Assembly (NCBI GenBank): GCA_963724325.1
Contig: CAVRUH010000007.1
Coordinates: 138,095 to 202,094 of the forward strand
Direction: 5' to 3'
Length of the DNA: 64,000 bases
Source: Waddliaceae bacterium
GTDB lineage: Bacteria; Chlamydiota; Chlamydiia; Chlamydiales; Waddliaceae
Below, piece by piece: positions 4,997 through 31,469 of this stretch (position 1 is its first letter; the number at the start of each line of letters is the position of its first letter). The notes under the pieces are model-generated. The model did not search any database and was not told where the DNA came from. It worked only from the letters and a program-made list of their open reading frames with translations. The translations under genes and the position numbers were made by a program.

Positions 4997-5070
4997 GGGG
5001 CAATAGCTCAGTCGGTTAGAGCAGCGGACTCATAACCCGCGGGTCACTGGTTCAAGTCCAGTTTGCCCCA
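4997..5070 (+). tRNA. tRNA with CAU anticodon (Met; tRNA-Ile2/lysidine not excluded)
   Basis: Hand-folded cloverleaf. Acceptor GGGGCAA/TTGCCCC, D arm GCTC-AGTCGGTTA-GAGC, anticodon loop CTCATAA, T arm ACTGG-TTCAAGT-CCAGT, discriminator A. CCA is not encoded. One A-C mismatch closes the anticodon stem. Confidence 0.85.
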
Positions 5071-5685
5071 CATTTTTTTTACAGGACAAACTTATGACAC
5101 TCATAGAATCCAAAATGGAATTTGCCGAAAGGAACCATGCGGTACTTCTATCCCTAGAGGCTCAGATTGTAGCGCACTATCAAAAACGTCCTCGCCTTCA
5201 TGATCACAATGTGATTCGCGTTTTAGAGGCTCTCATAAAGCACTTTAGGGCTTTAGCGACAAATTTCCCATTGCCTCAGCATTCATTATCTGAATTCGAG
5301 GGTGAAATTTATCTTAGCATTCAATACAATCTAGAAAAATCGGAAGCCCTAACTCCGAATGATTCCTGTGTCCTTTTAAAGTTCCTCAAAAAATCTGTAG
5401 AGCTAAACAACAAGAGATCGGGCTCACAGGGTTACTTAAACTTCATCAGCCGCTTCATCGAAGTTGAAATAGAGGATTAGAAACCCGAGTCACTCACCTT
5501 ATTAACATTAAAATATGTGAGTTAGGCTTCCGCATTCCCTAAATGGTTATTTTCAAGAAAAACTTATTTGTTTTTACTCTTCAATAACACAATTGATTTT
5601 CAGTGACTTATCAGCTTTAAAGCATAATCTTCACGTGTTCAAGAAGAGCCTTCGTTCGCTTCGCTCACTACGGCCAGATGCGCCC
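5029..5685 (+). repeat. ~657-bp direct repeat, copy A (tRNA 3' part, 128-aa ORF and ~200 bp downstream)
   Basis: Aligns by eye with 13176-13833 with only scattered substitutions. Homology ends at GGCCAGATGCGCCC. Confidence 0.85.
5094..5480 (+). CDS. Conserved 128-aa hypothetical protein, copy 1 (tRNA-linked family)
   Basis: ORF starts 24 nt after the tRNA. A near-identical copy lies at 13241-13627, a truncated copy at 18414-18620 and relics at 15908-16171 and 29887-29913. Confidence 0.6.
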   Translation: MTLIESKMEFAERNHAVLLSLEAQIVAHYQKRPRLHDHNVIRVLEALIKHFRALATNFPLPQHSLSEFEGEIYLSIQYNLEKSEALTPNDSCVLLKFLKKSVELNNKRSGSQGYLNFISRFIEVEIED

Positions 5686-5941
5686 TCCCTTATTTTTTGC
5701 CTTAGCGAGCGCAGCGTGCGAAGGCATTTCTACACAAGAAGTCGAATTCACCAATTAGGCTCTTCGGGCAGACGACAACTGAGTAATTGATATTTTTGAA
5801 CCAAAACAATGCTCGAGAGGATATGAAAAAGACGAAACAAACACCAGCTATGATATCCTTATGAAATTAAGGAATGGATTCACTCGTAAAAATAAAATAT
5901 AAGATTACAGTAAAAAATATAAATTTAAAAAATAGGAGAAT

Positions 5942-6658
5942 TTACTCATTTGAATTTACTGCCTCAGTTTTTCCAAAGAATTGATTATATGCATCTTCGG
6001 AAACAAAAAACTGCTTCCAATATTTTTCGTTATAAAGATGGTCTTCGGAGGTTATGTTCTTACTCACTAGTTCTATTCCTGACTTATACGTGTTTTTACG
6101 GTTTTTAAGTTCGTTTTTGATTGCTGCAAGTTTAATGATCTTCTGAATAGAAATTTTTTCGATTTCATCAACAACAGATTTCCCTGAAATCTTTGAAAGT
6201 AAATCCGTTTGTTGGAAGTAAAAATTTCTATATTCTTTATGACCAGCGCTAATCGTTAAATTTAGATATACTAATGCCAAGAAAGGGTCTAGATTTTCAT
6301 TAGCATACATTTGAGACACTTCAAATAAAGCTGGGGGATATCCCAAAGAGGCAGCCATTTTAAACTGCTGATTTGCCGCTTTCCTGTTTATTGATGTCCC
6401 AGTTCCTGATAACGAACACTGACCTGCAATATACATAGCAATCTCATCGCCATCAAGAGCAGCATCAAGAACCTTGCTAAGTTCAAATGTATCAGAAGTT
6501 TGAACGCTTTGCAGAAACTCTTCTAAGCCTTTTTTTTCTGTATTAGATAGCTGGAAACCATCTGAAAGATCGCTTTTAGGTGATTCTGAAGAATGGACAG
6601 TTGACGATCCCAATGCCATTGCAAATACAGTCATTCCTATTGCTATAAGTTTAAACAT
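5942..6658 (-). CDS. Exported Sel1-like repeat protein
   Basis: Start chosen at MFKLIAIGMTVFAMALG, with AAGGAG upstream. GTGTSINRKAANQQFKMAASLGYPPALFEVSQMYAN resembles a Sel1/TPR repeat. Confidence 0.5.
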   Translation of the reverse strand: MFKLIAIGMTVFAMALGSSTVHSSESPKSDLSDGFQLSNTEKKGLEEFLQSVQTSDTFELSKVLDAALDGDEIAMYIAGQCSLSGTGTSINRKAANQQFKMAASLGYPPALFEVSQMYANENLDPFLALVYLNLTISAGHKEYRNFYFQQTDLLSKISGKSVVDEIEKISIQKIIKLAAIKNELKNRKNTYKSGIELVSKNITSEDHLYNEKYWKQFFVSEDAYNQFFGKTEAVNSNE

Positions 6659-7035
6659 ACAAGACACTCCTTTACAATTAGTTAGACTAGCATATACAAA
6701 TATCAACAAAACATCAAACTATTAAATCGTTTAATTGTTTGACTTTCTTGAATGATCATGCCAATCTTGTGGCATAAACTCAAAAAAAGGTGGGTCTTGG
6801 TTGTTACAAAGCGAAAAGTATCCGGAGGCAAGCGCCGTGATACAGGGAGAAAATGCCTAGATACATTTTTAAGTTTGAAGCAAACTTGCCTTAAGCTGCA
6901 TATTAATTTTATTACATTTCTTAAAGACAGGGTGTGTGAGCAAAACGAGATTCCTCGGCTTGCTGAAATCATTCGCGGGCGTTCTTCAAAATCCCAAAAA
7001 ACCACTGAGGCCACTTAGAACCAAACTAGGTCCAA

Positions 7036-7083
7036 TTCACAGACATAGGTAACACTTTGATTCACAAACATAGGTAACACTTT
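7036..7083 (+). repeat. Tandem 23-mer TTCACA(G/A)ACATAGGTAACACTTT x2: IS-end-like sequence
   Basis: Two adjacent copies 50-95 bp upstream of the truncated transposase start. The same 21-mer (ACAGACATAGGTTACACTTTT) recurs at 18611-18631 at the edge of another IS relic. Confidence 0.6.
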
Positions 7084-7131
7084 TCAAAATATGGTATAAT
7101 ACTCTCATCATTAACAATTTAGGGAGTATTT

Positions 7132-8148
7132 ATGCCTTGGGAGAACTTGAAAGTGGAAAATCTTAGGTTAAAACTGATTCAATCCTTCTTGAAGGGTGAA
7201 GAGACAATGACAGACTTATGTTTAGAGAATGGAATAAGTCGAAAAACTGGGTATAAATGGTTAGCGAGATATGAGAAATATGGGGCCACTGTGCTTATGG
7301 AATGCAATCAATTGGAAACTTGGCTTTTTGAATCACCAGAGCCTTCTGAAACAGCATCGACTAATGCAGCACACTGCATAAAATGTTGGCGTGATTATCT
7401 TGAAATTAAAGATGCTTACTATGGGGATTTTGAGGAGTTTGAGTTGCCTGAGCCGAAAGAGGGAGAAATTCTGCAAGATTATATCATGCGCATGGCAAGG
7501 TTGGTTGAAGAGGAAGGAAAAGGGTCTAGACTTGAGTGGCGTGCGCTCAAATCCTTTTTGGGTTACATGCGAAATTTGGCTCATGAAGAAATTGCTTTCA
7601 TCGAGCAAATCTTTCCTTTTAAAATGAATATCCACGATTCAAGGATTATTCGACTGATTGAGCCGGAGGTTTACCCGATCTCACAGGCAATTGCCGCGGA
7701 CATTCTCAAGGAACTGGCCAGGATGTGTAAATATGGAAGGCCGAATGCTAAGCATGGGGCTGCTGAAGCACTTGGGTTGTGCTGGTTGTGTTTATCAGCA
7801 TCGCGCATGCGATTGCCTATCACTCTCACTGATATTCATGGCACGAAAAAAACGTCAGTTTTTGCCGATGAAAAATGTGCTAAATTGCTGGTACCAACTA
7901 TCTTTGGAAATAGGTCTCTAAGAATCTCGCGACGACTGGCAAAATACCTGTCAGCGCTTGCTGGGATTTCATCAATAGATCCAAGAAAAACTATTCTGCA
8001 GAGGCCTAAGAGGTCATTAATGAGAGTATTGGATAGAGCTATTGAAAATCTTAGACTCGATCCAAAATTAGGAAATATAACTTTTGTAACCTTAATTTCT
8101 TCGCCCGACATCTCGGGTGGCGATCATCGTTATGTCCGTAATTCTTAA
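7132..8148 (+). pseudogene. Chimeric ORF: IS481-type transposase HTH N-terminus (~60 aa) fused to an unrelated ~280-aa region
   Basis: MPWENLKVENLRLKLIQSFLKGEETMTDLCLENGISRKTGYKWLARYEKYG is the typical N-terminus of IS481-family transposases, but no DDE core follows. The C-terminal part has only faint tyrosine-recombinase-like spacing (SASRMR...LLVPT...ITFVTL) and lacks HxxR. Confidence 0.4.
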
Positions 8149-8242
8149 TAGATAAAAAGTGTCCATCGCTGTGCCGACGTGATTCGATCCATTTCATTTA
8201 CAATGAGCGCAATTCCGAAATTAACAACATCAGGAGGCGCCA

Positions 8243-8448
8243 ATGAGCGATTATCAGTATTTGGATATAAATCAAATTGTAGAGGGTGGCAATACCCCTT
8301 TTCATTAGGGCAATTACGTCACTACCTAATTATGCGGCACAAAAATAATCTTGAGATTGCAGTCCGAAAGATTGGAAAGCGGCTGTATTTGCGTAAGGAT
8401 CTTTTTGAACAATGGATAGAAGATCAAAAGGAGAGGAAAAATGGATAA
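8243..8448 (+). pseudogene. AlpA/Xis-type HTH (excisionase-like) gene, frameshifted
   Basis: AGGAGG plus ATG at 8243 gives MSDYQYLDINQIVEGGNTPFH then a stop. The +1 frame continues LGQLRHYLIMRHKNNLEIAVRKIGKRLYLRKDLFEQWIEDQ, the HTH_17/excisionase pattern. Confidence 0.5.
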
Positions 8449-8819
8449 TTTTCTCCTCGATGAAAAAGGTGTTTGGTTTGCGCCACCCACACATTCCCTT
8501 GGTAGATCATCACGGAAGCAAGGGAACCCTGCAAGATTGGCAACAATATATTGCCAAATTTTGTGTGGACAATTCGCGACTTGGCTTTTGTGTAAGTGTG
8601 GGGTTTACTTCACCCCTTCTTTATTTGTTAGGGGAAGAAAATGGAGGTTTTAACCTTCGAGGACCGAGCAGCGGAGGCAAAACAACTGCGCTAAAAGTTG
8701 GTCTCTCAACTTATGGAAGTGAAAAGATGCTCCATTCGTGGCGAGCTACATCAAACGGTCTTGAATCAATTGCGGCCCTTCACAATGATTGTCTCCAAGG
8801 AGTTGCAAGTCTTACTTAG
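8412..8819 (+). pseudogene. DUF927-type island primase/helicase, truncated fragment
   Basis: NSRLGFCVSVGFTSPLLYLLGEENGGFNLRGPSSGGKTTALKVGLSTYGSEKMLHSWRATSNGLESIAALHNDC matches the Walker-A region of DUF927 proteins. The ORF ends directly afterwards. Confidence 0.55.
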
Positions 8820-9183
8820 GAAAAATGGATATTCTGATGCAAAGGAAATATCAGCCAAACTCATTGAGCTCTATTCCCGACAGAATCAACGCTTGGAAGA
8901 GGACATTCAAAAGCTAATTAAGCAAAAGCTTACGAATGACACATCAAATAAACTCACCTTCATGCTTGGTTTGATCCCTACAGTGGATAACACAGACAAA
9001 GTCCTGAAATATGAGCGCTCCCTACAAAAATCGATTTTCCAGAACCTCCTTATGTTGAAAAAACTGCAAGGGGCTTTCTAGAAATGGGTCTGTTTTGGAA
9101 AAATGCAAAGTTAAAAAAACTGTCCTATGACTATGGCGACCTTCTCTAAGTGTATGGGGCAATGTCACTTGCAATTAGGAGGA

Positions 9184-10191
9184 TCAGAAGGTGCCATAGA
9201 GGTAGTTCCAATATGCCGTGAATATTTCAGACTGTTCTGAGGTCAGAGGCTCAACAATAATAAAGCTTTCATCACTGCGTGTAAATGAAGATTGTGACCA
9301 GTTTGCCGAACCATTAACCAAAATACTGTTATCGATGCACATAAGCTTATTATGCATGAAGCTTAATTTTGGGTTGACCTTAACCTCTATCCCTGCCGCC
9401 ATTAGCTTTGGTAGATTTCCACCAAAATCAGGTGCTACCACCTGTACTTTTATTCCTCGTTGGTGGGCTTTAATTACTGCATTTGCAAGATCATTGTTGG
9501 TCCAAACCATCATGGCAATATGGATGCTTGTATTCGCTTGATCGATTTTTTCAATGAGAAATTGTTTAGATTGCTCGTTGATTGACTTTTCTACTTTTTT
9601 TTGTGGAAACCCATCATGAGGCAGAAGACAAAAATAGATGTCTTGACTGAGTAGAGAAATAAGTAATGGTCCATGTTCGGTTCGGTGAGCACTTAAGCGA
9701 AATATATCTGCTTCGTGATGAAGATATTGCGCTAACTCAGTTGAATTAAATCTTACCATTAAATTTTCTTGGGTTTGATATGCAGATGTTGTAAAGTTTG
9801 CGGATCCAATCCAAATTTCACTTTCATCTACAACCAGTATCTTGTGATGAAGATGACCTTCTCCTGTCGTCCTCGTCACAATTTCAATATTTGGCAGCTT
9901 TTTGCTTGCAATTTCACCTAAATGGTCTCTATCGATCACGACTGTGACTTTTAATCCCTCGTTTGCTTTCTGATTGAGTGCTGCGATAATTTCGGGATCA
10001 GATAGGCTGAATGTAATAATCAGAATTGATTTTTCAGCGTGAAGAATGCTTTCCTTTATCGAAACGCTTAAGTGTTTACGGTCTTGGGTATGATATAGCT
10101 GTGCGTCAGCTGCTACTGTAGCTTCAAGGCTGCCTACGCAAAATACCATAGCTGCTAATAGACTGAAAATTGATAATTTAAATTTTAACAT
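9184..10191 (-). CDS. Secreted phospholipase D-family protein (two HKD motifs)
   Basis: 335 aa with a signal peptide. HKD motifs HHKILVVDESEIWIGSANFT and HNKLMCIDNSILVNGSANWS. Confidence 0.85.
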   Translation of the reverse strand: MLKFKLSIFSLLAAMVFCVGSLEATVAADAQLYHTQDRKHLSVSIKESILHAEKSILIITFSLSDPEIIAALNQKANEGLKVTVVIDRDHLGEIASKKLPNIEIVTRTTGEGHLHHKILVVDESEIWIGSANFTTSAYQTQENLMVRFNSTELAQYLHHEADIFRLSAHRTEHGPLLISLLSQDIYFCLLPHDGFPQKKVEKSINEQSKQFLIEKIDQANTSIHIAMMVWTNNDLANAVIKAHQRGIKVQVVAPDFGGNLPKLMAAGIEVKVNPKLSFMHNKLMCIDNSILVNGSANWSQSSFTRSDESFIIVEPLTSEQSEIFTAYWNYLYGTF

Positions 10192-10205
10192 GGTTAACCT
10201 TCCTT

Positions 10206-11165
10206 TTAATTATTCCAAGCTTGCAATAGATTTTGTCTCAATTTATCTCTCCTCATGGGGTCGAATGTAGAAGATTTGATTAAATTGCGAAGTTCGAGCT
10301 CCCAAATCTTAAGCTTGCCAGGCTGAATTTTTGTATAACGTTTTATGATAAGCGGTGATGTAGGATTAAGTACCCCACTAATGCCTAAAACAAGTCGCAA
10401 TTCTTGTGGAAATTCATCTGAAGGAGTGTCGAGGAAATATTCACTGATCAATTGATTCTCAGCAATGAATCCATTGGGATATGATGCATACCCCACTGTA
10501 TTTCCAAAAGCATATAAAGAGACAGAGCTATCAAAAAATTGCAGAAGAACGCCGGCTTTACTGTCCAGATGTTGATGTGAGATAGTATAAGCCACCTCTA
10601 TCAATGATGAGTCCATTCCAAGTTCTTCGAACATGTGTTTCAAGTCCTTTCGCTGTTGATAGGTGTCGCTACCTACATTCTTCGTAAAATTTAAGACTGA
10701 GTTTAACCCTAGGCGGTTGTGATTCGAGTAGATGCAGAAGTTCAAGGGGAAAGTACTTTCTGCGACCAACTGCGAATAGTGTATTTCACTTACAAATACC
10801 CGTGAAAAAACTTCTAGAGATTCTAGAAAGTTGTTTTTTTTAAATGGCGTTGAAACGAAATGAAAATCCTTTCTGATGGGCACATCTAGGACCTCTTCGA
10901 CAATTATACGAATAATGTCTTGGTAAACTAGAAAATCTAAACTGTCTCCATGATATCCCATGAAGCTGATATTTTCCTGAGCTATAGCTTTATCGAATAA
11001 CTCACGGTAATCTAATCCAACACCTTTTCCTTTCAGATTATACTTAATCTGATCGAGTCCAACAAATGCAACATATTGCTTTGAAGGAGATTCAAATTCA
11101 GCACCATGGATTCTGATGGTCCCACAAATAAATAACAAGCTTAAAAGTAGGATTTTATTATTCAT
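10206..11165 (-). CDS. Exported hypothetical protein, paralog A
   Basis: 319 aa with a signal peptide. Shares FMGYHGDSLDFLVYQDIIRIIVEEVLDVPIRKDFHF and LLQFFD blocks with the adjacent ORF. Confidence 0.6.
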   Translation of the reverse strand: MNNKILLLSLLFICGTIRIHGAEFESPSKQYVAFVGLDQIKYNLKGKGVGLDYRELFDKAIAQENISFMGYHGDSLDFLVYQDIIRIIVEEVLDVPIRKDFHFVSTPFKKNNFLESLEVFSRVFVSEIHYSQLVAESTFPLNFCIYSNHNRLGLNSVLNFTKNVGSDTYQQRKDLKHMFEELGMDSSLIEVAYTISHQHLDSKAGVLLQFFDSSVSLYAFGNTVGYASYPNGFIAENQLISEYFLDTPSDEFPQELRLVLGISGVLNPTSPLIIKRYTKIQPGKLKIWELELRNLIKSSTFDPMRRDKLRQNLLQAWNN

Positions 11166-12180
11166 TTTTTTCTCTCCACATGTTCAATAACAATTCACGA
11201 TACTGTACGACTTTTGTTTCATCGTAAGGCAGTGTTCTGATTGCTTCACGTAAGTTAGATTCATACTCATTGATTAGTTCGGGATCATTCCTGTCAAAGC
11301 GCATGATATATAGAGGGGAATACGGATTTAGAGTGACGGAGTTGTTAATGACAAGCCGGAATTGTGCAGGAAAAGCTGTAGAATTAACGCCAAGGAATAT
11401 TTCGGACATTCTTTTCTCATTGAGAATTGGACGTCCGCCGGGCAAGGCATTATAGCATAATTGATTTATCAAATCATAATGATTTTGAAATGCATTGTGA
11501 TGAGAAAAGTCGAAGAATTGGAATAACACAGCATTATCCATGGTCATCAAAGGGTTGCCTATTGCAAATAAATCAGGTATCGCTTCGGTTGGTATTCCTA
11601 AAGAATCAAATAAATAATTTAGTTGAGTTTGGAATCCAACGGTCGTTGCAGATCTATTCCTTGTAAACCAGTAGACAGTGCATTCCCCAAAGTTATCGAA
11701 ATTCCCAAAGAGTGAATAATTCATCGACAACAACTGCTCTCGTTGTTCTGGTAACGCGTCAATCACTGCAGGATAGTCTTTCAGGAATTGCTCCTCACTT
11801 TCCCGATTTAGCATAGGTTTTCCTGGGATGCGCAGAAAGTGAAAGTCTTTTCTAATATGGATCTCGCAAATTTCCTCTATTATTATCCGAATAATATCTT
11901 GATAAATACGAAATCCTTGAGTGCTGCTATGGTATCCAAAAAAACCAAGCTCTTCGTGGGGAATGATGTGCTCGAAGAAATTGCGATGCTCCAAAGACAA
12001 CCCGTTTGTCTTCAGCGCTTGCAATATTTTCTCGTAATTGTAAAATCCGCAAAAGCGATTTGTTGGGGATGCATATACGGCTTCGGTTCGAATCGGCATA
12101 TCGAAATCTACGATTGCCGGAGTGGCAAGCAATGATAAATTACAAAGTGCAATTAAAATAAATAAAATTAATCTAATCAT
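11158..12180 (-). CDS. Exported hypothetical protein, paralog B
   Basis: 340 aa with a signal peptide. FFGYHSSTQGFRIYQDIIRIIIEEICEIHIRKDFHF is paralogous to 10206-11165. 8-nt overlap with it. Confidence 0.6.
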   Translation of the reverse strand: MIRLILFILIALCNLSLLATPAIVDFDMPIRTEAVYASPTNRFCGFYNYEKILQALKTNGLSLEHRNFFEHIIPHEELGFFGYHSSTQGFRIYQDIIRIIIEEICEIHIRKDFHFLRIPGKPMLNRESEEQFLKDYPAVIDALPEQREQLLSMNYSLFGNFDNFGECTVYWFTRNRSATTVGFQTQLNYLFDSLGIPTEAIPDLFAIGNPLMTMDNAVLFQFFDFSHHNAFQNHYDLINQLCYNALPGGRPILNEKRMSEIFLGVNSTAFPAQFRLVINNSVTLNPYSPLYIMRFDRNDPELINEYESNLREAIRTLPYDETKVVQYRELLLNMWREKNE

Positions 12181-12331
12181 AATTATTTAACCAATATATT
12201 TAAGATGAATACATTTTAACAATTATCAATTTATAAGTCAATCATAAACATGCATTTTTATATCGATTTGAATGGACCAATGCAATATGCTTTGTGGGGA
12301 TAAGTCTAAATTCAACCATAAAGGAGAAATT

Positions 12332-12925
12332 ATGTTGAACAGTTTTATCCGAAAGTTTTTATTTATCATTGTTCTTACGACATCGCTGTCATCCCCTATT
12401 TTTGCTGTGGATGACTTTCAAGTTGAGTATCAACCACAGGTCATCGAAAAAGTAATTCAGTTTGAGAAGAAAAGCATCTTAAAGCAAAAAGCAAATGGAT
12501 ACCTATATGTCGAAGTGTCTCGAGATTTTATTGCCGAGGCTCTTCCTCTAATTGATGCCCCGGGAAAAATTGTACACCCGAGTCATTATACTAGCAAGAA
12601 AGGGATTGGAGCCCATATCAGCATTATTTATGAAAATGAGTTGATTGAACATGAAATCTGGGAGATCGATGAGTTGGGGCAAGAGTTCACATTCTCGGTC
12701 ATGGAGTTGAGGACGGTAAAACTAAATGACAATAACAAGATGAAAAAACTTTGGCTTTTGGCAGTAGCTGCTCCCGAGTTAGAGAAACTTCGTGAGGGTT
12801 ATGGTCTATCATCCCGTTTAAAAAACCATGATTTCCATATAACAATAGGAACTCAAGTACCTGGTAAAGTCTATGTTTTATTCGATGAGATAATCATTGA
12901 AGAGGAGCTGGAAGAAGCAGCATAA
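12332..12925 (+). CDS. Exported 2H phosphoesterase-superfamily protein (two H-x-S/T-x motifs)
   Basis: Start at ATG 12332 with AAGGAG upstream. N-terminal hydrophobic signal. HISI (GAHISIIY) and HITI (HDFHITIG) are spaced ~80 aa apart, as in LigT/cyclic phosphodiesterase folds. Confidence 0.6.
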   Translation: MLNSFIRKFLFIIVLTTSLSSPIFAVDDFQVEYQPQVIEKVIQFEKKSILKQKANGYLYVEVSRDFIAEALPLIDAPGKIVHPSHYTSKKGIGAHISIIYENELIEHEIWEIDELGQEFTFSVMELRTVKLNDNNKMKKLWLLAVAAPELEKLREGYGLSSRLKNHDFHITIGTQVPGKVYVLFDEIIIEEELEEAA

Positions 12926-13175
12926 GGCTGATTCCAAAGATAAAATCGATTTGGTAGCCTAACAACAGGGGATTCGAATGCCTCTTTTGTGCTTTTGCTC
13001 AACTTCAGTTTAAGCACGACTTTCACAACTATCCTTCGCGTTGCAATGGCGGTGCAATGATTTACCTATTTATCCAATAATATCCATCAGAAACCAGTTG
13101 CAATTTGATTGCATATCCTTTAGCATGTTACTCATAGCGGTTGGATGGTGTTGATTGGAGTGGAAGTCCCCCTCC

Positions 13176-13217
13176 CTCATAACCCGCGGGTCACTGGTTC
13201 AAGTCCAGTTTGCCCCA
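13176..13217 (+). repeat. tRNA-Met 3'-part copy 2 (42/42 nt)
   Basis: Identical to 5029-5070. No matching 5' acceptor strand lies upstream, so it is not a functional tRNA. Confidence 0.9.
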
Positions 13218-13240
13218 CATTTTTTTTACAGGACAAACTT

Positions 13241-13627
13241 ATGACACTCATAGAATCCAAAATGGAATTTGCCGAAAGGAACCATGCTATACTTCTCTCA
13301 CTGGAGGCTCAGATTGTAGCGCACTATCAAAAACGTCCTCGCCTTCATGATCACAATGTGATTCGCGTTTTAGAGGCTCTCATAAAGCACTTTAGGGCTT
13401 TAGCGACAAATTTTCCATTGCCTCAGCATTCATTATCTGAATTCGAGGGTGAAATTTATCTTAGCATTCAATACAATCTAGAAAAAACGGAAGCCCTAAC
13501 TCCGAATGATTCCTGTGTCCTTTTAAAGTTCCTCAAAAAATCTGTAGAGCTAAACAACAAGAGATCGGGCTCACAGGGTTACTTAAACTTCATCAGCCGC
13601 TTCATCGAAGTTGAAATAGAGGATTAG
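13241..13627 (+). CDS. Conserved 128-aa hypothetical protein, copy 2
   Basis: Differs from copy 1 at about 2-3 residues (AV>AI, KSE>KTE). The longer track ORF from 13145 reads through the pseudo-tRNA and is rejected. Confidence 0.6.
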   Translation: MTLIESKMEFAERNHAILLSLEAQIVAHYQKRPRLHDHNVIRVLEALIKHFRALATNFPLPQHSLSEFEGEIYLSIQYNLEKTEALTPNDSCVLLKFLKKSVELNNKRSGSQGYLNFISRFIEVEIED

Positions 13628-14444: not shown

Positions 14445-14483
14445 AAGAATTGCTCCTAGAAGTTGTTTTAAAAATATATTTTG

Positions 14484-21285: not shown

Positions 21286-21310
21286 ACGACCTCCTTATCT
21301 GTTCATTATT

Positions 21311-22252: not shown

Positions 22253-22273
22253 CTTTTTTCTGTGTTGGAATTC

Positions 22274-23950: not shown

Positions 23951-24025
23951 TGATTATAGTTTTTTGTTTGTAAAATGATTGAATTCAAGAAATGGCCCGA
24001 AGATCTCGAACCAAAAAAGCTTATC

Positions 24026-24613
24026 TTAAAAAGGTAAACGACTTTGATAAGGATCACTTTTAGCAGATTCGAAAGACTGATTATAATTTGGAGAATACTC
24101 AAAAATATTATCTTGATCTTGCTGTGTTTTTAAAGCTTCAATAATCAGCTTGTAAAAACTTGATAGTTCCTTTTCGATTTTAATTCGAAAATGCGACTTT
24201 GTCTCAATTAGAGGTTTGGATTGAGATAGAATTGATTTTCCATCTTCGTATCTTTCAAGAATTTTTTCTCCATCAGCATACTTGAAAACTTCGCTTTGAG
24301 TAACATAGACGTTATAACTAAAACGATATTCAGTCTTATTTTTTCCCCATACTATGCAATGATCTGTATGTCTTATGAATTCGTCCTGATAAGGAAATTT
24401 TTCCGTTGAATTTGGTCTTACAAATCTTGTTTTTTCAGATGAAAAAACATAAGTAAAGGTAAATGGAATACCTGCTGTTTTCAACCTTTCTTCTAATGCT
24501 TTAATGTCATTAGAAATACGGTCCAAATCTTGAAGATGATTAGAAATTACGGAGTCCGCTTCAGAATTAAGTATTTGAAGGGAGGTTGATACAAAAGATT
24601 TTGTTGATGTCAT
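24026..24613 (-). CDS. Hypothetical protein
   Basis: 195-aa ORF co-oriented with the HNH-like gene 75 bp downstream. No motif. Confidence 0.45.
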   Translation of the reverse strand: MTSTKSFVSTSLQILNSEADSVISNHLQDLDRISNDIKALEERLKTAGIPFTFTYVFSSEKTRFVRPNSTEKFPYQDEFIRHTDHCIVWGKNKTEYRFSYNVYVTQSEVFKYADGEKILERYEDGKSILSQSKPLIETKSHFRIKIEKELSSFYKLIIEALKTQQDQDNIFEYSPNYNQSFESAKSDPYQSRLPF

Positions 24614-24937
24614 AATATAAATCCTTAAAATTTGTGAATTTTATTTTTTTTAATAATTACACAACAGTGCAATTACCCAGATTCAACCTTGGTTTTTCAT
24701 TCAAGATTCAGGATTCCAATTCAAGGAAAAGCCCATTCAAGGGTTTAAAACAAACTGCTATCAAGCAGTTAATGAGAATGACTTTAGCAAACATTATAAT
24801 TACATACAAGAAAAAAGAAAATTGTTGTCGGTGTTCGAGTTATTTGGCTTTCGAGAAATTTGCATTAATATGCACATGCTAAGTTCATTTATTTCCTTCT
24901 ACTGCCTTACCTTCAGAATCTATAAAGATAAGGGGGG

Positions 24938-24993
24938 CAGGCTTGGCATGCGGACATTTGATCGGGATCAAATGTCCGCATGCCAAGCCCGAC
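24938..24993. repeat. ~55-bp palindromic intergenic repeat, copy A
   Basis: GGCTTGGCATGCGGACATTTGATC-GG-GATCAAATGTCCGCATGCCAAGCC, followed by CGACTCTTTTTT. Family members lie at 38458-38512 and 42925-42975, with a half copy at 37646-37668. Confidence 0.85.
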
Positions 24994-25247
24994 TCTTTTT
25001 TCTACTGATCATTAAGAGAAATATTGTCTTTAACTTCTTCATATTTATTTTCAGCTTCAACAAAAATTATTTAAACAAGTCTATAATTTGATTTTTTGAA
25101 ACTTTCATGATAAGATTTTAAAAAATAACATCGGAAAATTCAATACAAATACTATCAAAAGCATCTTGCTTTTGGCTTTATGATTTTTTGTATGTTTTGA
25201 AATATGAGTACCCGCTTGACTTAATTGGGCACCTGACTAATTACCAA

Positions 25248-26354
25248 TCACGATGTACATAGCGTAAGAGGGATTAGGTCCGTATAAGCAACCATCTCTT
25301 TAGGAGAAATGTAGTTGTGCGCAAAAAAATCGGTTGATGCCGCATTTCTTTTCTCCGCATTATCATTATTTTTTTGAGGAATTGGGATTTGATTGTACGC
25401 TTGAAATGCCGAAGGCTCAAGCAACAGCATTTTGATGACTGAAATGCGAGAGATTTCCAACAGATCAAACAAGTCTTTAATTTCGGGTGTCTTCTCCTGG
25501 CGGATCGAGGACCCCGGGAAAGAGAGGTCTTTGACATACCCATGGAGGCCTGGAGGTCTATGGTCATCCCAAATAGCCTTTAGCCTTGCCTCAATCTCTT
25601 GTGAAGTGAAAGATTTTCCATTTATAGCAGAGGAAGTATTTGCTAGGAATGATCCTAACCTTGAAGCAACTCGATTAGCATGATGACGACTAGGATTGCC
25701 CACCAAAGCGTCAAGTAAAGGAAACAGCTTGGAAAAAGAGGAACTCGCATAGTGCAGGCGCTCCCAGATTACCGCTTCAAAAAACAATTGTAATGTTAAG
25801 TATGGGCGTGGCATGTGTTGACGTTGTTCAAGACAGTTTAGGATGAGAGGAAATAGTTTACCTGCCAGTGAGAAATCCTCTACTTCGTACTGTAGCAAGG
25901 GTTTGCCATTGACATCATGTGGAAAGAAACTGTCAAGACAAACATTAGTGCGATGGTTGATGTGGTTTGTTTCATGACCCAATAGCCCATCTTCCAGTGT
26001 ACCGTATGTGAAAGATCCTCCGATTACCATACGAATAGGTTTTGCCAAGTGTAGTGCACCCAGCATGGCCCAACCATAACGCCGAGCCCTCTCAACGGAA
26101 AGAGAGGAGTCAACCTTAAGACATGCATGACATTGATCCATTCCAAGCCCATGTCCAGGGTAAACCCATGCACCTAGTCCGACATGGCGTTCTGGTGGGG
26201 AACCTGGGTGAGCTCCATGTACCACGGCGTGATATGGGGTTGAGGCTAAGTAGATGCCGGAAGAAAGAGGAATTGGCAATTGGCGATATAATTCGCCTGC
26301 TATTGGGAGGTGCGTGAAGAGAAAGTAGTGGTCGCCGTGTTGTGGTTCTTTCAT
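25248..26354 (-). CDS. Orphan 368-aa protein, visibly GC-richer than its flanks; weak HEPN-like R-x4-H-G near the C-terminus
   Basis: Long ORF with clean coding appearance. AIWDDHRPPGLHGY (R266-H271), preceded by helical blocks. No firm family assignment. Confidence 0.55.
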   Translation of the reverse strand: MKEPQHGDHYFLFTHLPIAGELYRQLPIPLSSGIYLASTPYHAVVHGAHPGSPPERHVGLGAWVYPGHGLGMDQCHACLKVDSSLSVERARRYGWAMLGALHLAKPIRMVIGGSFTYGTLEDGLLGHETNHINHRTNVCLDSFFPHDVNGKPLLQYEVEDFSLAGKLFPLILNCLEQRQHMPRPYLTLQLFFEAVIWERLHYASSSFSKLFPLLDALVGNPSRHHANRVASRLGSFLANTSSAINGKSFTSQEIEARLKAIWDDHRPPGLHGYVKDLSFPGSSIRQEKTPEIKDLFDLLEISRISVIKMLLLEPSAFQAYNQIPIPQKNNDNAEKRNAASTDFFAHNYISPKEMVAYTDLIPLTLCTS

Positions 26355-26475
26355 GATTTTATTCCGTCTGCTGGTGTTTTTCTAGTGTTTTGAGTCCTTA
26401 TAAGAGCCATGCCTAAGATCCTTCAAAGTTTATATTTGCAAATGACTCAATGATGTTTGAAATCATAACATGTAT

Positions 26476-26504
26476 TTGCATAAAATTGCAACATATGTTA
26501 TAAT
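26476..26504 (+). promoter_or_regulatory. Sigma70-like promoter of the XRE-Panacea/toxin operon with an embedded palindrome
   Basis: TTGCAT (26476-26481), 17-nt spacer, TATAAT (26499-26504), 24 nt before the ATG. The palindrome AACATATGTT (26490-26499) overlaps the spacer and the first base of the -10. Confidence 0.5.
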
Positions 26505-26528
26505 AAAAAGAAACAGGGGATTGTGTTT

Positions 26529-27320
26529 ATGGAAACATCTTTAGGTAAACGAATAAAAGCCTTGCGTGAGGCTCTGAGAATAAGCCAAGAGGAATTATCG
26601 CAAAGATTAGCATTGGATAGAGCTTCGCTGTCTTTAATCGAAAATGACAAACGCTCATTGAAAGCTGATGAACTTATTTTACTATCAAAATCTTTGAATA
26701 TTTCGATTGATGAGTTGTTAAATCTCAAGTCGTCAACAGAAGTTATTTTGGAACAGGCTCAGAAGCCAAAAGAAAAAAGAAATGACTTACGGATTAGCGT
26801 TCCAAGAAAAAACCTGAAAAAGTTTAAGGAAGTTCTTCTCTATATATTGGGAAAGGTTGGAGCAAAACCAAATGTGGGTGAAACTGTCTTGTATAAGCTG
26901 CTGTACTTTATAGATTTCAACTATTACGAGAAATATGAAGAACAACTCATTGGAGCCACATACATCAAAAACCATCATGGCCCTACCCCAATCGAGTTTC
27001 AGTCCATTGTAAATGAGATGATAGAAAACAAAGAAATCGAAGTTGTGAAAAGTAAATATTTTCAGCATCTCCAAAAAAAATATCTACCTCATCAAGAACC
27101 CGATCTTTCTGTCTTTAATGCAAATGAGATCAAAGTGATAGATGATGTGTTGCAAAAATTATCTGGCATGAATGCTTCAACAATAAGTGAATACTCTCAT
27201 CAAGATGTCCCATGGATGGTCACATCGGAAAGGCAAAAAATTGATTATGAATCTGTATTTTACCGAACCCCTGCATATAGCGTAAGAGAGTATAGCAACG
27301 ATGAAATTCAAGCACATTGA
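26529..27320 (+). CDS. XRE-family HTH fused to a Panacea (DUF4065/SocA-like) antitoxin domain
   Basis: N-terminus LGKRIKALREALRISQEELSQRLALDRASLSLIENDKR (HTH_XRE). C-terminus GETVLYKLLYFIDFNYYEKYEEQLIGATYIKNHHGPTPIEF (DUF4065 signature). Confidence 0.75.
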   Translation: METSLGKRIKALREALRISQEELSQRLALDRASLSLIENDKRSLKADELILLSKSLNISIDELLNLKSSTEVILEQAQKPKEKRNDLRISVPRKNLKKFKEVLLYILGKVGAKPNVGETVLYKLLYFIDFNYYEKYEEQLIGATYIKNHHGPTPIEFQSIVNEMIENKEIEVVKSKYFQHLQKKYLPHQEPDLSVFNANEIKVIDDVLQKLSGMNASTISEYSHQDVPWMVTSERQKIDYESVFYRTPAYSVREYSNDEIQAH

Positions 27321-27669
27321 GCAGCTAGATAAATTCAAGAAAGATCTAAAAAAACTCCTTAAAAGATTTCCCAGTCTTGAGGAAGATTTAGACTCGCTTG
27401 TGAAAGCACAATTGATTGCTTATCATAAACTCAATGTCGACAATCATGGCATCTTTGCAATCGAAAATCTTGCAATTCAAAATCCTAAAATTTTTAAAGT
27501 TAAGAAGTTTGCTTGCAAATCGTTAAAAGGAAAAGGTGTTCATTCTGGTATTCGCGTCACATATGCATATTTTCCAGTTGAAGACAGAATAGAGTTCATC
27601 GAGATCTACTACAAGGGTGATCAAGAGAATGAGGATAGAGAAAGGATCAAAAATTATTATATAAAATAA
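27301..27669 (+). CDS. RelE/ParE-superfamily-like toxin candidate
   Basis: 122 aa, overlapping the antitoxin gene by 20 nt. KSLKGKGVHSGIRVTYAYFPVEDRIEFIEIYYKGDQEN resembles the KGKSGGYRVIYY...IY.K..ENL core of RelE/HigB-like toxins. Confidence 0.5.
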   Translation: MKFKHIEQLDKFKKDLKKLLKRFPSLEEDLDSLVKAQLIAYHKLNVDNHGIFAIENLAIQNPKIFKVKKFACKSLKGKGVHSGIRVTYAYFPVEDRIEFIEIYYKGDQENEDRERIKNYYIK

Positions 27670-27793
27670 CCTATGCTTTTAAAATATTAGCTATTACTTT
27701 AAATCACCTAGTAAGAAAAGGATTAAGTCTAGAAGAATGGAGATCTTTAAGGATGCAGTACTCTGTATAATCCATTGATATTGGATTCCATTA

Positions 27794-29542
27794 TTAATTT
27801 ACATTGTACGTAAATTCTACCGATTCCTTTCTTCTTTCATCTTTTGGGACATAAGTTTTTAATAGATTTCCGAGTAAATTTCCTTTTTTAATCTCATAAG
27901 TTTTAAAATAACGATTAACACGTTGTTTATTAGCTCCCCAATAACTACCAAAACCATCGGGTTGATTAATCCAATCCCAATCTTTCTTTTGGACCATGCC
28001 GGTAACTCCTGAGGAAACATTATTTTCAAGAAATGGAATATGACGGAAATTCATATATTCTGTATCAATAAAGTAAATTCCTTCTTCACCTTGCGAATCC
28101 CTTCCTAACATGAAATTGTCGCCAAGAAAGTCTCCAAAACCGGTTGCTTCTAATATTTTGAGAAATTCAGTGACTTCTTCTCTTGTAGTGCCTCGTTCCA
28201 GAGGAGTGATATTTTCCGCAAAAATAGTTACTTGATCGGAAGTTAATTCTAAATTGTAAGGACTTACTACTGCAGGAACAGAAGTGATTCCTTCATTCAA
28301 TACAGCAATTTTTTTGGGAACCTTAATATGTTTTAAGCCTAGCTCCTCAGCTATTCTTTTTATGTAATTTGCCCCTTGAATTCTACCTAAGTCCCTTCCT
28401 TTATCCCAATAAGCTCCCTTAGGATGATTTTGATCAACAAATTCCTGCTTAGTCAGCAACCTACCAGATTCTCTTAAATCTTCAAAAAATTCTATTCCAA
28501 TTTGTTGAACCTCTTCATTGCTCATAGAATGTCTAAAAATACTAGGTCCTAGGGTCCTCTGTTCTATTTTTGTGCGCAATTCAAGATTTTTATGAGGACA
28601 TTTCTTGTTAAGCGCTTGAATGAAGTTTGTTTCAAGAATAAGGGCCTTCTCAATGATTTTTTCATTGACCGCATTGAATGAATTCGCAGTTTGAGTAAAA
28701 TTAAGTATTTGAAAAATTATAGATTCACTAAGACCATCATAAAATCCTCGAATCTCTTCTTCTGTAACTTCTTCATTCTTGATGATGGCTATTAATTTTT
28801 TTGTATTTTGCTCCTCTTCAAGGCGACCAGTATCTTCTTTAAGCCAATTTAAAAATTCTGGATTTGTTAATTCGTCAACTGGTTTAGGCTCTATCTTAAC
28901 ACCAACATTTGAAGGAACAAGATTTGACGAATTTTCTTTTGCTTCCGGTTCTTCAACTTTCTTTAGATATTCTTCATCTCGTTCCCTTGCTTCGTTTTCA
29001 AGTTCGGACTTTCTTCTTTCTTCTTGAACCCTTAGTGCCTCTTCGCGTTCATTTTTTAAGTTTTTGAATGCTGACCGAGCTAAGTGACCCCTAAATAGGC
29101 TTTGAATTTTTGTTGCGGCGATGTTTTTTGTTTGTTCTGTTGGTTCGTTAATCTTTTCCTGTGAAGATATGTCATTAATATTTTGATCTAAGGAAGAATT
29201 AGAGGGTTGATCATTGGAAGGAATAGAAGATTCAAGCAGAGCAAAACGAATATTTTCTTTAGACTTAATAAATAGGTTTCTTATGGATTTTGAGAAGAGT
29301 GCTAAACATAAGGTGCATATGACAGCAACAGTTCCCAATAATCCTCTTCCAAAATGTTCTAAACCGGAGAAGGCGCGTTCTCTTTTTTCAATAATGCGAT
29401 ATTGACGACCTTTATAATCAGAGCATACTCTATGTCCTTTTTCATCAACGAGTCTATTCGTGCTGTTAAATTTCGTCGCTAAAACCCATTTATCACTAAG
29501 GCTAATTTCGTTTATTATGCTAATTATTTTAAACCCTGGCAT
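27794..29542 (-). CDS. Membrane-anchored protein with a perfect IQ motif, a coiled coil and a kinase-like C-terminal domain
   Basis: 582 aa. TM GLLGTVAVICTLCLALF. IQSLFRGHLARSAF (nt 29066-29107) fits IQxxxRGxxxRxxF. Glu/Lys-rich coiled coil. C-terminal GFGDFLGDNFMLGRDSQGEEGIYFIDTEY resembles the catalytic D..N / ID.E of Kdo/RIO-type atypical kinases. Confidence 0.6.
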   Translation of the reverse strand: MPGFKIISIINEISLSDKWVLATKFNSTNRLVDEKGHRVCSDYKGRQYRIIEKRERAFSGLEHFGRGLLGTVAVICTLCLALFSKSIRNLFIKSKENIRFALLESSIPSNDQPSNSSLDQNINDISSQEKINEPTEQTKNIAATKIQSLFRGHLARSAFKNLKNEREEALRVQEERRKSELENEARERDEEYLKKVEEPEAKENSSNLVPSNVGVKIEPKPVDELTNPEFLNWLKEDTGRLEEEQNTKKLIAIIKNEEVTEEEIRGFYDGLSESIIFQILNFTQTANSFNAVNEKIIEKALILETNFIQALNKKCPHKNLELRTKIEQRTLGPSIFRHSMSNEEVQQIGIEFFEDLRESGRLLTKQEFVDQNHPKGAYWDKGRDLGRIQGANYIKRIAEELGLKHIKVPKKIAVLNEGITSVPAVVSPYNLELTSDQVTIFAENITPLERGTTREEVTEFLKILEATGFGDFLGDNFMLGRDSQGEEGIYFIDTEYMNFRHIPFLENNVSSGVTGMVQKKDWDWINQPDGFGSYWGANKQRVNRYFKTYEIKKGNLLGNLLKTYVPKDERRKESVEFTYNVN

Positions 29543-29824
29543 TTTTCACCTAATTGATTACAAGTTAATGACTTTAAAGAAAATTGTAACAGATTAGATA
29601 ATTTAAATCAAGACCAAACTTCTACACCTCTACGCCATGAATGGCACTTTGTGACCAACAGGTTTAATCTGATAAATGTAAGAATTGGACCAACGGTGGA
29701 CCAAATAGGGACATCAAATTACATGATATCAGATAAAATTAGAATAGACTGAAAAGTCTTGAGGCTGCTATCTTGATTTATGTCAGCTCTTGTAGTAAGC
29801 GATAGTTTGAGGATCGCTGACAGA

Positions 29825-29866
29825 CTCATAACCCGTGGGTCATTGGTTCAAGTCCAGTTTGTTCCA
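29825..29866 (+). repeat. tRNA-Met 3'-part copy 5 (38/42 nt), followed by a relic of the 128-aa ORF start
   Basis: CTCATAACCCGTGGGTCATTGGTTCAAGTCCAGTTTGTTCCA. Downstream, ATGATACCCATAGAATTTGCCGAATAA (29887-29913) is MTLIESKMEFAE with a 12-nt deletion and a stop. Confidence 0.8.
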
Positions 29867-30212
29867 CTTTTTTACGGTACACACTTATGATACCCATAGA
29901 ATTTGCCGAATAAATCCCTAAAAAATATGCGACCGGTTCAGCACAGGTTTCATCTCATTTCACAAGATTTTCGGATGCATCAACATACTATTGAATTTTT
30001 ACTTTACAGCTTTACTCTGCTATTTATGTGAATCCAATAAACATCGTCTGTCTGGATAAAATAAATAATTTTGATTCTGGATTTTTCACAGCGCATGTGT
30101 TGGAGTATATGGAAATTTCAAATAAAATCTCCGTCTAGACATGGAATAGTTTTAGTATTATAGTGAGTAAATATGTTATCGTAGAACCTTTAGTTTTGGA
30201 GACCTTGTGGCA

Positions 30213-30656
30213 ATGAAGAATTACAGAGTTGAATTTATTGATAAAGTTTCTGAAGAATTAAAGAAAATAGTGCTTGAAGGTTTTGGCCGTCACTCTATCG
30301 AAATGACAGGGCATGATGAAAAATTTGAATCTGTTGCTTTTGTGGCCTATAATGGTGATAATTTTGCTGGAATAATTGAAGTTGTTTTATTTTGGGGAGC
30401 TCTTCACATCAAAAAAGTTTATATAAATGAAGACTGCCGCGGGCAAGGACTTGGCAATAAACTAATGGAACTTGCTTGTGGATATGGTCGGGAAAATAAA
30501 TGTCCATTCGCATTCGTTGAAACGATGAGTTTTCAAGCACTGGGTTTCTACCAAAAAAATGGGTTCCAATTAGAATTTACTCGTCCTGGATATTCACATG
30601 GATGCTCATTTCATTACTTAAAAAAAGACCTTATGGTACACCTACGCTTCATTTAG
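30213..30656 (+). CDS. GNAT-family N-acetyltransferase
   Basis: INEDCRGQGLGNKLMELA (motif A R/QxxGxG/A) and FYQKNGFQ. ATG at 30213 preferred over GTG at 30207. Confidence 0.8.
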   Translation: MKNYRVEFIDKVSEELKKIVLEGFGRHSIEMTGHDEKFESVAFVAYNGDNFAGIIEVVLFWGALHIKKVYINEDCRGQGLGNKLMELACGYGRENKCPFAFVETMSFQALGFYQKNGFQLEFTRPGYSHGCSFHYLKKDLMVHLRFI

Positions 30657-30868
30657 CTTGCATACGACCCCTTCTGATTTTGCAAAGATCTATTAATCGA
30701 CTGGGAACAATTTGATACTTGCAGTAATGACGCTGCCGACAATGAGTTTCTTGCCAACTGGTGGAAAAACTATGCTCTCTGATAAAATTATGAAAACAAT
30801 CTTACACGAAGAAAAAGAGACCGATGTCAATCAGAGATATGAAAGTAAATAATTATATGGTTTAGGAA

Positions 30869-31282
30869 ATGCGCAATATGAAACAAATAAATCGCTACGG
30901 TGCCTATGGGATTGTTCTAGTGGATTCGAAAATTCTGCTTACTCAAAAAAGAGGAGGCCCATACAAAGGGCTATGGGATTTGCCTGGAGGTGGTATTGAG
31001 TTTGGCGAGTCCCCTGAAGAGGCTCTTCGGCGTGAACTACATGAAGAGGCAGCATTGACTGCAGATGAGGTCCATCTGTCAAGAGTCATAACCTTCAATG
31101 GAAAATACGATAATGACGGTGAAGAATATATTTTTCACCACATCGGTCTCATCTATAGCGTTTTGAATGTAACATCAAATCCAAATCTAATGCCCGAAGA
31201 AGAATTGCGATGGGAGGTGCCAAGGAATATCGACAGGGAAGAGCTAACGCCGTTTGCTAAACAAGTAATAGAAGGCTTGTAA
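30869..31282 (+). CDS. NUDIX hydrolase
   Basis: Nudix box GGGIEFGESPEEALRRELHEEAAL. Confidence 0.85.
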   Translation: MRNMKQINRYGAYGIVLVDSKILLTQKRGGPYKGLWDLPGGGIEFGESPEEALRRELHEEAALTADEVHLSRVITFNGKYDNDGEEYIFHHIGLIYSVLNVTSNPNLMPEEELRWEVPRNIDREELTPFAKQVIEGL

Positions 31283-31433
31283 CATTTCGATGCAGAAGTC
31301 ATGGCACGCATATGGAACAGTTCGGCCCTATAAATCTAACCAAGTCTCAGCTTTTGCCTGTTGAACTTTTGCAACCCTTCTGATATCCTATTGCTGAGAA
31401 CAGTTAATGACTATTGTAAAGTATTGGAAATAA

Positions 31434-31469
31434 GCGGCCTCATAACCCGCGGGTCACTGGTTCAAGTCA
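31434..31469 (+). repeat. tRNA-Met 3'-part copy 6 (partial; 35/36 nt, ends inside the T arm)
   Basis: AGCGGCCTCATAACCCGCGGGTCACTGGTTCAAGTC versus tRNA AGCGGACTCAT...; diverges after GTTCAAGTC. Confidence 0.8.

Follow-up and report, generated by a model that had tools for sequence, protein, structure and literature searches.

Tandem islands at a single small-RNA gene have been catalogued and described before. Islander (Hudson, Lau and Williams; PMC4383910) calls a tandem array only if every member has its own integrase, and by that measure arrays of at least three islands occur in only 4 cases, compared with 3919 islands in total. In Dehalococcoides, the repeats of ssrA lie within 100 kb downstream of the gene, nucleotide conservation runs on beside the repeats, and some islands without an integration module have been read as fixed or as resembling cis-mobilizable elements (CIMEs; PMC3146451). 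Here we describe a related locus in a 64,000-nucleotide (nt) stretch of a Waddliaceae genome (assembly GCA_963724325.1, contig CAVRUH010000007.1, positions 138,095 to 202,094), hereafter the window. Downstream of its tRNA-Met gene, copies of the tRNA 3′ part, each a putative attachment (att) site, bound six segments named A, B1, B2, C, D and E (Table 1). Very probably this is a tandem accretion array left by at least five to six integrative elements with at least three families of attachment arms, which entered serially by tyrosine integrases at one tRNA-Met and then decayed.

Copies of the tRNA-Met 3′ end and their adjoining arms

ARAGORN and Rfam each found exactly one tRNA in the window, with the end called at 5070 or 5071, and an identical tRNA occurs at L008, a locus of a Waddliaceae genome (L numbers designate loci in other genomes). 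The att identity block of 42 nt corresponds to tRNA bases 5029-5070; it begins at the first anticodon-loop base and ends at the discriminator. The original prediction listed two perfect copies of this block (13176 and 18350), one copy matching at 40 of 42 positions (22211) and one matching at 38 (29825-29866), and we recovered all four, the last with four mismatches. It also placed a 36-nt partial copy at 31434-31469; this copy is present with a single mismatch, but its true coordinates are 31433-31468. It spans tRNA positions 27-62, with 6 nt more on the 5′ side than the 42-mer, and ends in the T-loop without the last 12 nt; a Cass2/GyrI-like gene begins at 31495. The copies at 13176, 18350, 22211 and 29825 extend to the discriminator A and are thus terminal 3′ fragments, which the 31433 copy is not.

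All copies are on the + strand, downstream of the tRNA and within 26.5 kb. A low-stringency search found no att copy in the remaining 37 kb of the window or on its − strand, and for the exact copies and the two-mismatch copy (22211-22252) none of 100 shuffles matched the 42-mer. No copy folds as a tRNA according to ARAGORN and Rfam. The window therefore shows the Islander signature of a full tDNA with same-orientation 3′ fragments downstream, five of them plus one relic. This relic, suspected earlier at 15865-15888, is real: its alignment to the att tail, T-run and downstream start region has a score that was reached by 2 of 2000 shuffles, and directly 3′ of it lies an N-terminally truncated homologue of a gene that we call F (tblastn E 5e-15).

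The repeat had been described as a 42-nt segment, and although the copies stand, homology runs past the 42 nt on both sides. Downstream, self-comparison aligned 5029-5694 with 13176-13842 (97% over 667 base pairs, bp), 5029-5281 with 18350-18601 (253 bp, 96%) and 5027-5109 with 29823-29902 (86%), such that blocks of att plus gene F recur at 80-667 bp. Five segments open with gene F or its remnant directly after att; segment D has none. Upstream of att, 13042-13175 resembles 18216-18349 (the enclosing alignment, 13042-13428 versus 18216-18601, is 87% identical), and 22073-22210 resembles 29686-29824 (71%).

Five copies, the 15865 relic being the exception, are preceded by 75-190 nt with homology to element right ends from unrelated Chlamydiota genomes. 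Based on the 150 nt upstream of each fragment, these right arms form three families. Family 1 has seven sequences (window copies 13176 and 18350, and L002, L015, L016, L043 and L008) and family 2 has five (window copies 22211 and 29825, and L013, L021 and L046). The third is represented by the end of segment E, where 31357-31468 is 73% identical to L019 597-708 and also matches L028 (76%) and L034 (88% over 49 nt). The seven family-1 arms share a tandem pair of GCGGTGCAAyG about 130 nt from att, a ACCAGTAG block and an att-adjoining GCGGTTGGATGGTG block. In the arm of segment A the pair is seen as the tandem 11-mers GCGTTGCAATG GCGGTGCAATG at 13038-13059, and GCGGTTGGATGG follows at 13136-13147. 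Within the window the tandem motif is confined to the two family-1 arms (13038-13059 and 18214-18232), with 0.05 occurrences expected by chance. The family-1 arms match the right end of an integrase-bearing element at L002, and also L016, whose genome is the one that holds the integrase element at L036. No cognate integrase was identified for families 2 and 3.

Intact relatives, gene F and other tRNA-Met loci

At L042, L011, L036, L053 and L064, tblastn and Pfam/PHROGs annotation revealed a common order: tRNA-Met/att, a conserved spacer of ~155 nt, integrase, YhcG, a protein of 341 amino acids (aa), HTH_17 and DUF927. The integrase of these intact relatives is of the tyrosine type (355 aa; Phage_integrase 4e-29; phrog_1). 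The YhcG/DUF1016 nuclease is missing from L011 and L064, the 341-aa protein belongs to no family, the HTH_17 protein is small and AlpA/excisionase-like, and the DUF927 primase-helicase corresponds to phrog_1139. After DUF927, the full element continues with cargo, right arm and att. In all five intact elements, the 155-nt spacer between att and integrase carries the tandem GCGGTGCAAyG together with CCATCCAACCGC, the inverse of the right-arm GCGGTTGGATGG. Judging from these motifs, their presence in both spacer and right arm is the layout expected of a two-armed attP. L002 holds a complete mini-element of only 3 kb, consisting of tRNA end, left arm, integrase, YhcG, ORF173, family-1 right arm and att.

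Integrases were thus found in the relatives L002, L011, L036, L042, L053 and L064. A search for the lineage returned 788 clusters at E <= 1e-30; among the best 120 of these 788, all were at least 69% identical and none was on a contig with the length of the source contig (561,902 bp). In IMG/VR there was no close relative of the integrase (best 25% identity); the elements are therefore not recognisable prophages, and we rejected a phage origin.

Pfam scans of ~70 main open reading frames (ORFs) of the window detected no Phage_integrase, and tblastn with 12 integrases from related loci found no integrase, in agreement with the earlier statement that the window holds no intact one. We also considered integrase remnants. 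The only matches had E >= 0.001 and fell within the ORF of an IQ-motif protein, in which Pfam and PDB searches detected no recombinase, and we attribute them to chance. The left-arm motifs are likewise absent from the window, which argues against an attL that functions autonomously. Overall, the right arm is still recognisable in five of six segments, whereas the integrase and left arm are gone from all six. The tyrosine integrase that Islander expects in each island is thus missing. As in CIMEs, the segments are bounded by att and lack recombination and transfer genes (Pfam scans detected neither integrase nor relaxase in any of the six), and the att sites and family-1 arms are related to those of an integrase-bearing element.

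Segment A retains part of the element core. Its genes are collinear with those of L042, L011, L036, L028 and L064 (37-84% aa identity by tblastn) and keep the order 338-aa protein, helix-turn-helix (HTH) protein, DUF927 fragment and C-terminal remnant, without integrase, YhcG or left arm. The other segments retain no core genes. The earlier suggestion that the array is decaying is thus borne out by the lost integrase and left arm and by the decayed core of segment A. Likewise, the conserved right arms, the integrase that follows tRNA/att in relatives and this decayed core support the view that the tRNA 3′-end repeats are attachment scars of tyrosine integrases. Separately, the first ~55 residues of the 338-aa ORF (7132-7300) match IS481-type HTH models.

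Gene F has no match in Pfam, NCBIfam or PHROGs, although a profile search gathered 538 clusters (E <= 0.001). Its AlphaFold (AF2) model, with a mean confidence (pLDDT) of 89.5, is all-helical with six helices, and Foldseek against the PDB gave no match (best E 0.66). The conserved motifs are TNFPLP and KFLKKS..WN..GSQGYL..ISRF. Elsewhere, F follows family-1 or family-2 arms in L002, L046, L068 and P0010, a protein of another genome encoded by an ORF that continues through a family-1 arm and an att copy into F; in L045 the gene lies behind a tRNA(CAT) that is intact but different. Adjacency to tRNA/att thus holds for the close subfamily (window, L002, L045, L046, L068 and P0010). That F always lies beside a tRNA was rejected: L047 and the distant members do not, and the distant ones occur in ordinary chromosomal contexts. 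At L073, one distant F-like gene is located just upstream of a family-1 arm. A protein-based metagenome scan for F, which used a poor back-translated pattern, returned no match. Copy B2 shares motifs, by eye, with P0010, and this likeness, with the divergence of B2, suggests that at least one unit of att plus F was imported.

The order arm, att, F resembles an attR fused to DNA from outside the element. F may be a chromosomal flank that an aberrant excision picked up and that Campbell-type recombination through att plus F then put back, which would directly yield the 667-bp direct repeats around segment A. Alternatively, F may be an element gene of integrase-less modules.

To find further loci we scanned one genome per species (GTDB) with a degenerate 37-mer of the tRNA 3′ part. 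The 42 loci recovered (43 matches) comprise ~22 full tRNA-Met genes and ~20 3′-part fragments without the 5′ half, all from metagenome-assembled genomes labelled Chlamydiota, Verrucomicrobia or unclassified uncultured bacteria; those nearest to the window are in Waddliaceae and other Chlamydiota genomes. The nearest orthologous locus is L008, with pncB upstream (73% aa identity). There, the tRNA and two more att copies, one behind a family-1 arm, occur within 4 kb, with unrelated cargo and no integrase. L039, L021 and L025 have two fragments each, 4-5 kb apart. On the 2.67-Mb contig of L053, att and integrase have no tRNA within 10 kb on either side, and an AbiE module and transposases lie between. 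The shortest arrangement is that of L033 and L009 (JAPLSW010000041.1, ~46.8-48.8 kb), where a 1.9-kb mini-island fills the whole interval from tRNA-Met to its copy and consists of AbiEi, a small ORF, a nucleotidyltransferase and a right arm, and nothing else. Arms of this family also stand before att in L017 and L035, with the AbiE module beside the arm in L017. The toxin-antitoxin end of the element is apparently what outlasts decay.

The 42-mer is therefore tied to tRNA-Met loci and is not dispersed through genomes, and related genomes do not repeat the same array, as that of L008 carries different cargo. The original prediction had named both patterns as evidence that would count against it. 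A 42-mer bound to tRNA-Met loci whose content varies between genomes is as serial integration predicts. As a separate observation, a 189-nt stretch at 47944-48130, 43 kb downstream of the tRNA, is 69% identical to L011 399-585, which sits just upstream of tRNA-Met in that Parachlamydiales genome. The overlapping ORF 47970-48329 (−) has no Pfam family. The stretch could be a trace of synteny around the tRNA that was later rearranged.

Origin of the array

Under serial accretion, the attP of the incoming elements would carry the tRNA sequence from anticodon loop through 3′ end, and the crossover would be of the anticodon-loop type because identity starts at that loop. Each integration would remake the tRNA from the element's copy and push the old 3′ part, with all earlier insertions, distally; older scars would lie farther off and be more degraded. 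The mismatch gradient from the tRNA outward (0, 0, 2, 4, then a truncated copy) fits an order with the newest nearest the tRNA, although the 15865 relic, between two perfect copies, breaks it. Decay would then have removed the integrase-side ends. Homologous (Campbell-type) recombination or duplication through att plus F probably also built or reshuffled the array. Lacking an integrase in the window, the segments could move only through one acting in trans, which is the CIME condition.

Several observations weigh against this account. The att plus F repeats of 253-667 bp are 96-97% identical versus 83-87% for the adjoining family-1 arms, and by this measure they point to recent duplication or gene conversion, not to independent arrivals. 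The DNA between att and F has no left-arm motifs, and five segments start with F, not with a left arm and integrase; therefore, these segments are not simply complete elements minus one gene. In GC content the segments (35-39%) are no different from the DNA to the right of the array (35-37%), and composition therefore gives no independent boundary. Finally, the segment order rests on one assembly; the Logan short-read assembly of run ERR11523662, which contains identical sequence, has contig breaks within the tRNA and within the 22211 att copy.

Could the array instead have arisen mainly by internal amplification, with a single island and its att plus F multiplied by unequal crossing-over or Campbell-type recombination and later diverging, and few independent integrations? 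The 667-bp (97%) and 253-bp (96%) repeats, the difference of only 7 nt between F copies A and B1, and the F-led left ends without left-arm motifs all speak for it, and duplication did contribute, through att plus F blocks. As the main process, however, we regard it as unlikely. The segments had been said to carry unrelated cargo, and this cargo is indeed unique, although five segments share the gene F start or a remnant of it and arms are shared. Beyond att plus F and the arms no sequence is common to the segments, which thus do not have the repeated unit content of a simple tandem segmental duplication. The three arm families are each as close or closer to arms of other genomes than to the other families here; for example, the arm at 29686 is 84% identical to L021, versus 71% to the arm at 22073. 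F copy B2 is just 48% identical to copy A and by eye shares motifs with P0010, and homologues of the AbiE and NUDIX cargo are adjacent to att in other genomes. A series of copies had been taken to imply either repeated integration or duplication, and the three arm families and the near-identical att plus F repeats indicate both.

The breaks in the Logan assembly, and the fact that linkage rests on one assembly of what is apparently a draft genome contig (561,902 bp), also speak for a reading in which alternative islands of co-existing strains at the same tRNA-Met were strung in series through their shared flanking repeat. We consider such an artefact very unlikely, as the copies differ (from perfect to truncated or relic) and have different preceding arms, unlike collapsed or duplicated assembly paths, and similar arrays with several copies are also seen in assemblies made independently, among them contigs of 464 kb and 2.67 Mb. 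Fragments of tRNAs are common in genomes, and many copies lie in one region here, as might be seen with a dispersed tRNA-derived repeat (a family resembling short interspersed elements or miniature inverted-repeat transposable elements, MITEs, or a pseudo-tRNA family) unrelated to site-specific integration; such fragments are discussed in PMC9897764. That origin is scarcely credible, since the copies are on one strand, downstream of the sole cognate tRNA and confined to 26.5 kb, each holds just the 3′ part without folding as a tRNA, and they lie behind conserved integrase-type arms and, in relatives, ahead of integrase genes. Serial accretion followed by decay thus remains the favoured origin. 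It is improbable, in our estimation, that the array is a working gene-capture platform, in which small integrase-less modules of cargo, right arm (~75-190 nt) and att enter, leave and are swapped at tRNA-Met by trans-acting integrases of the very widespread chlamydial tRNA-Met lineage or by RecA on att plus F. In that case F, which in its closest subfamily occupies the integrase's usual position, could be a functional part.

Array contents and comparison with known systems

Table 1. Features of the tRNA-Met array, in window coordinates
Feature	Position	Strand	Remarks
tRNA-Met(CAT), intact	4997-5070	+	ARAGORN; Rfam RF00005, 69.9 bits; integration target, current attL
att copy 1, 42/42	13176-13217	+	A/B1 boundary
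Relic att tail (TTTGGCCCCA + T-run + start region)	15865-15905	+	B1/B2 boundary; local alignment
att copy 2, 42/42	18350-18391	+	B2/C boundary
att copy 3, 40/42	22211-22252	+	C/D boundary
att copy 4, 38/42	29825-29866	+	D/E boundary; followed by gene F remnant of a few codons, to ~29909
Distal att copy, 36 nt, 1 mismatch	31433-31468	+	Last recognisable boundary
Family-1 right arm (P arm), segment A	13034-13175	+	74-87% to arms in L002, L043, L016, L015, L008
Family-1 right arm, segment B2	18215-18349	+	Tandem motif at 18214-18232
Family-2 right arm, segment C	22062-22210	+	78-80% to arms in L013, L046
Family-2 right arm, segment D	29686-29824	+	84% over 186 nt to L021; ~70% to L013, L046
Third-family right arm, end of segment E	31357-31432	+	
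Gene F copy A, 128 aa, intact	5094-5480	+	Starts 23 nt past tRNA; inside 667-bp block
Gene F copy B1, 128 aa, intact	13241-13627	+	7 nt, 2 aa from copy A
Gene F copy B2, N-truncated, divergent	15908-16171	+	48% aa to copy A
Gene F copy C, cut after ~62 codons	18414-18620	+	Homology stops at 18601
Segment A	5071-13175		8.1 kb
Segment B1	13218-15864		2.6 kb
Segment B2	15889-18349		2.5 kb
Segment C	18392-22210		3.8 kb
Segment D	22253-29824		7.6 kb
Segment E	29867-31432		1.6 kb
Decayed family-1 element core, segment A	7132-9081	+	tblastn collinearity; Pfam DUF927; L042 reference annotation
338-aa protein	7132-8148	+	Segment A core
HTH_17/AlpA-like small protein	8179-8448	+	Segment A core
DUF927 primase-helicase, internally deleted	8412-8819	+	Most of gene gone; Pfam DUF927
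C-terminal remnant of next gene	8698-9081	+	Segment A core
PLD-like enzyme	9184-10191	−	Segment A cargo; Pfam PLDc_2 7.5e-45
Two ORFs without family	10206-12180	−	Segment A cargo
2H phosphoesterase	12272-12925	+	Segment A cargo; Pfam 2H-SAK 1.7e-17
IS481-type transposase fragment (rve_3)	18889-19410	−	Beside gene F copy C, which it truncates
AbiE-type nucleotidyltransferase	19778-20275	−	Segment C cargo; Pfam
Small ORF of AbiE set	20272-20556	−	Segment C
AbiEi	20553-21161	−	Segment C; Pfam
HEPN protein	21397-21939	+	Segment C; Pfam
Orphan ORFs	22253-29685		Segment D cargo; Pfam
HTH-SocA/Panacea antitoxin-type protein	26523-27320		Segment D; Pfam; partner ORF 27301-27669
IQ-motif protein, 582 aa	27794-29542	−	Segment D; PDB sequence search, only IQ-motif matches
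GNAT acetyltransferase	30207-30656	+	Segment E; Pfam
NUDIX hydrolase	30869-31282	+	Segment E; Pfam

Some of the cargo in Table 1 has relatives beside attachment sites elsewhere. The AbiE homologues of segment C (66-81% aa identity) adjoin tRNA-Met or att in L009/L033 and L017, and a homologue of the segment E NUDIX hydrolase (55% aa identity) lies ~400 nt from an att copy in L018. The array does not have the features of an integron: there is no integrase, and in place of attC sites the boundaries consist of tRNA fragments behind arms of 75-190 nt. At 31495-31977, a Cass2 domain was considered as an integron sign and rejected, as it is only a GyrI-like ligand-binding domain (Pfam).

Outside the array, we noted a full-length IS481-type transposase (HTH_32 plus rve_3) at 54347-55510. 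Beyond the last att copy, the region 31495-46119 (GC 35-37%) has the same low GC as the array and encodes genes of accessory type (Cass2/GyrI-like, SDR, macro domain, GNAT, ankyrin protein, DUF892 and DJ-1); the variable region may reach past the last recognisable scar. A palindromic element of ~65 nt (AGGCTTGGCATGCGGACATTTGATC...GATCAAATGTCCGCATGCCAAGCC) occurs three times, at 24934-25003 in segment D and at 38455-38522 and 42921-42985 outside the array, and may be a repeat of the REP (repetitive extragenic palindrome)/MITE-like or terminator type. Long imperfect palindromes were found at 40938-41168 (231 nt, 80% self-complementary) and 56240-56344 (105 nt, 95%). Tandem paralogues without a Pfam family (51604-52389 and 52594-53457, −) are ~71% identical over 1 kb including flanks (51604-53591). 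A phosphoglucomutase gene occurs twice on the − strand, as partial or duplicated forms (59153-60100, domains I-II; 63072-63953, domains III-IV), with two orphan ORFs in the ~3 kb between them. As 59053-59293 and 63060-63300, and 59295-59517 and 63778-64000, are 99% identical, this region may have arisen by duplication and internal deletion, or by rearrangement. Pfam also identified a CT021-family protein in the window, which together with the nearest loci places the source among environmental Chlamydiota.

Environmental Chlamydiota are usually regarded as poor in mobile DNA, and the locus marks tRNA-Met as a recurrent hotspot of gene gain in this group. Together with its relatives it defines an element family at this tRNA, with a conserved tyrosine integrase and two-armed attP, a YhcG nuclease and a DUF927 primase-helicase. 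It also illustrates a route of decay in which the integrase-side end is lost, leaving the right arm, toxin-antitoxin or defence-type modules (AbiE, HEPN and SocA/Panacea) and possible host-interaction genes (PLD and the IQ-motif protein). Pipelines that demand an integrase per island would overlook such an array wholly. What stands out is the number of boundaries, the total loss of integrases and the setting in an environmental chlamydia.

The array resembles the tandem islands of Islander in its intact tDNA, displaced same-orientation 3′ fragments and "A"-type attP site, and in the tyrosine integrases of its intact relatives. Unlike Islander arrays, it has six to seven boundaries and zero integrases, and the Islander pipeline would therefore reject it. 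The ssrA islands of Dehalococcoides (McMurdie et al., 2011; PMC3146451) are similar in that many 3′-end repeats of one small-RNA gene delimit tandem islands; they differ in having a tmRNA target, a 20-bp repeat and a serine recombinase, and many of them keep the integration module. The ICESt1/ICESt3-related CIMEs of Streptococcus thermophilus (Pavlovic et al., 2004, cited in PMC3146451; reviewed in PMC5704250) are likewise att-bounded, have lost their recombination genes and are stacked at one site. Compared with them, the window array is without a functional partner element, one arm is lost and gene F has been captured or duplicated at that end in several segments; moreover, the host is an obligate intracellular chlamydia. 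In environmental chlamydiae, Pam100G of Protochlamydia amoebophila UWE25, as outlined by Greub et al. (2004; PMC548262), is also an island flanked by short direct repeats, although it comprises just one island, of 100 kb, whose repeats measure 17 bp and which has an F-like conjugative transfer system, in contrast to the stacked small decayed elements at tRNA-Met. In combination, these comparisons make the array a clear but ordinary instance of known tandem accretion and decay, which leaves current concepts unchanged.

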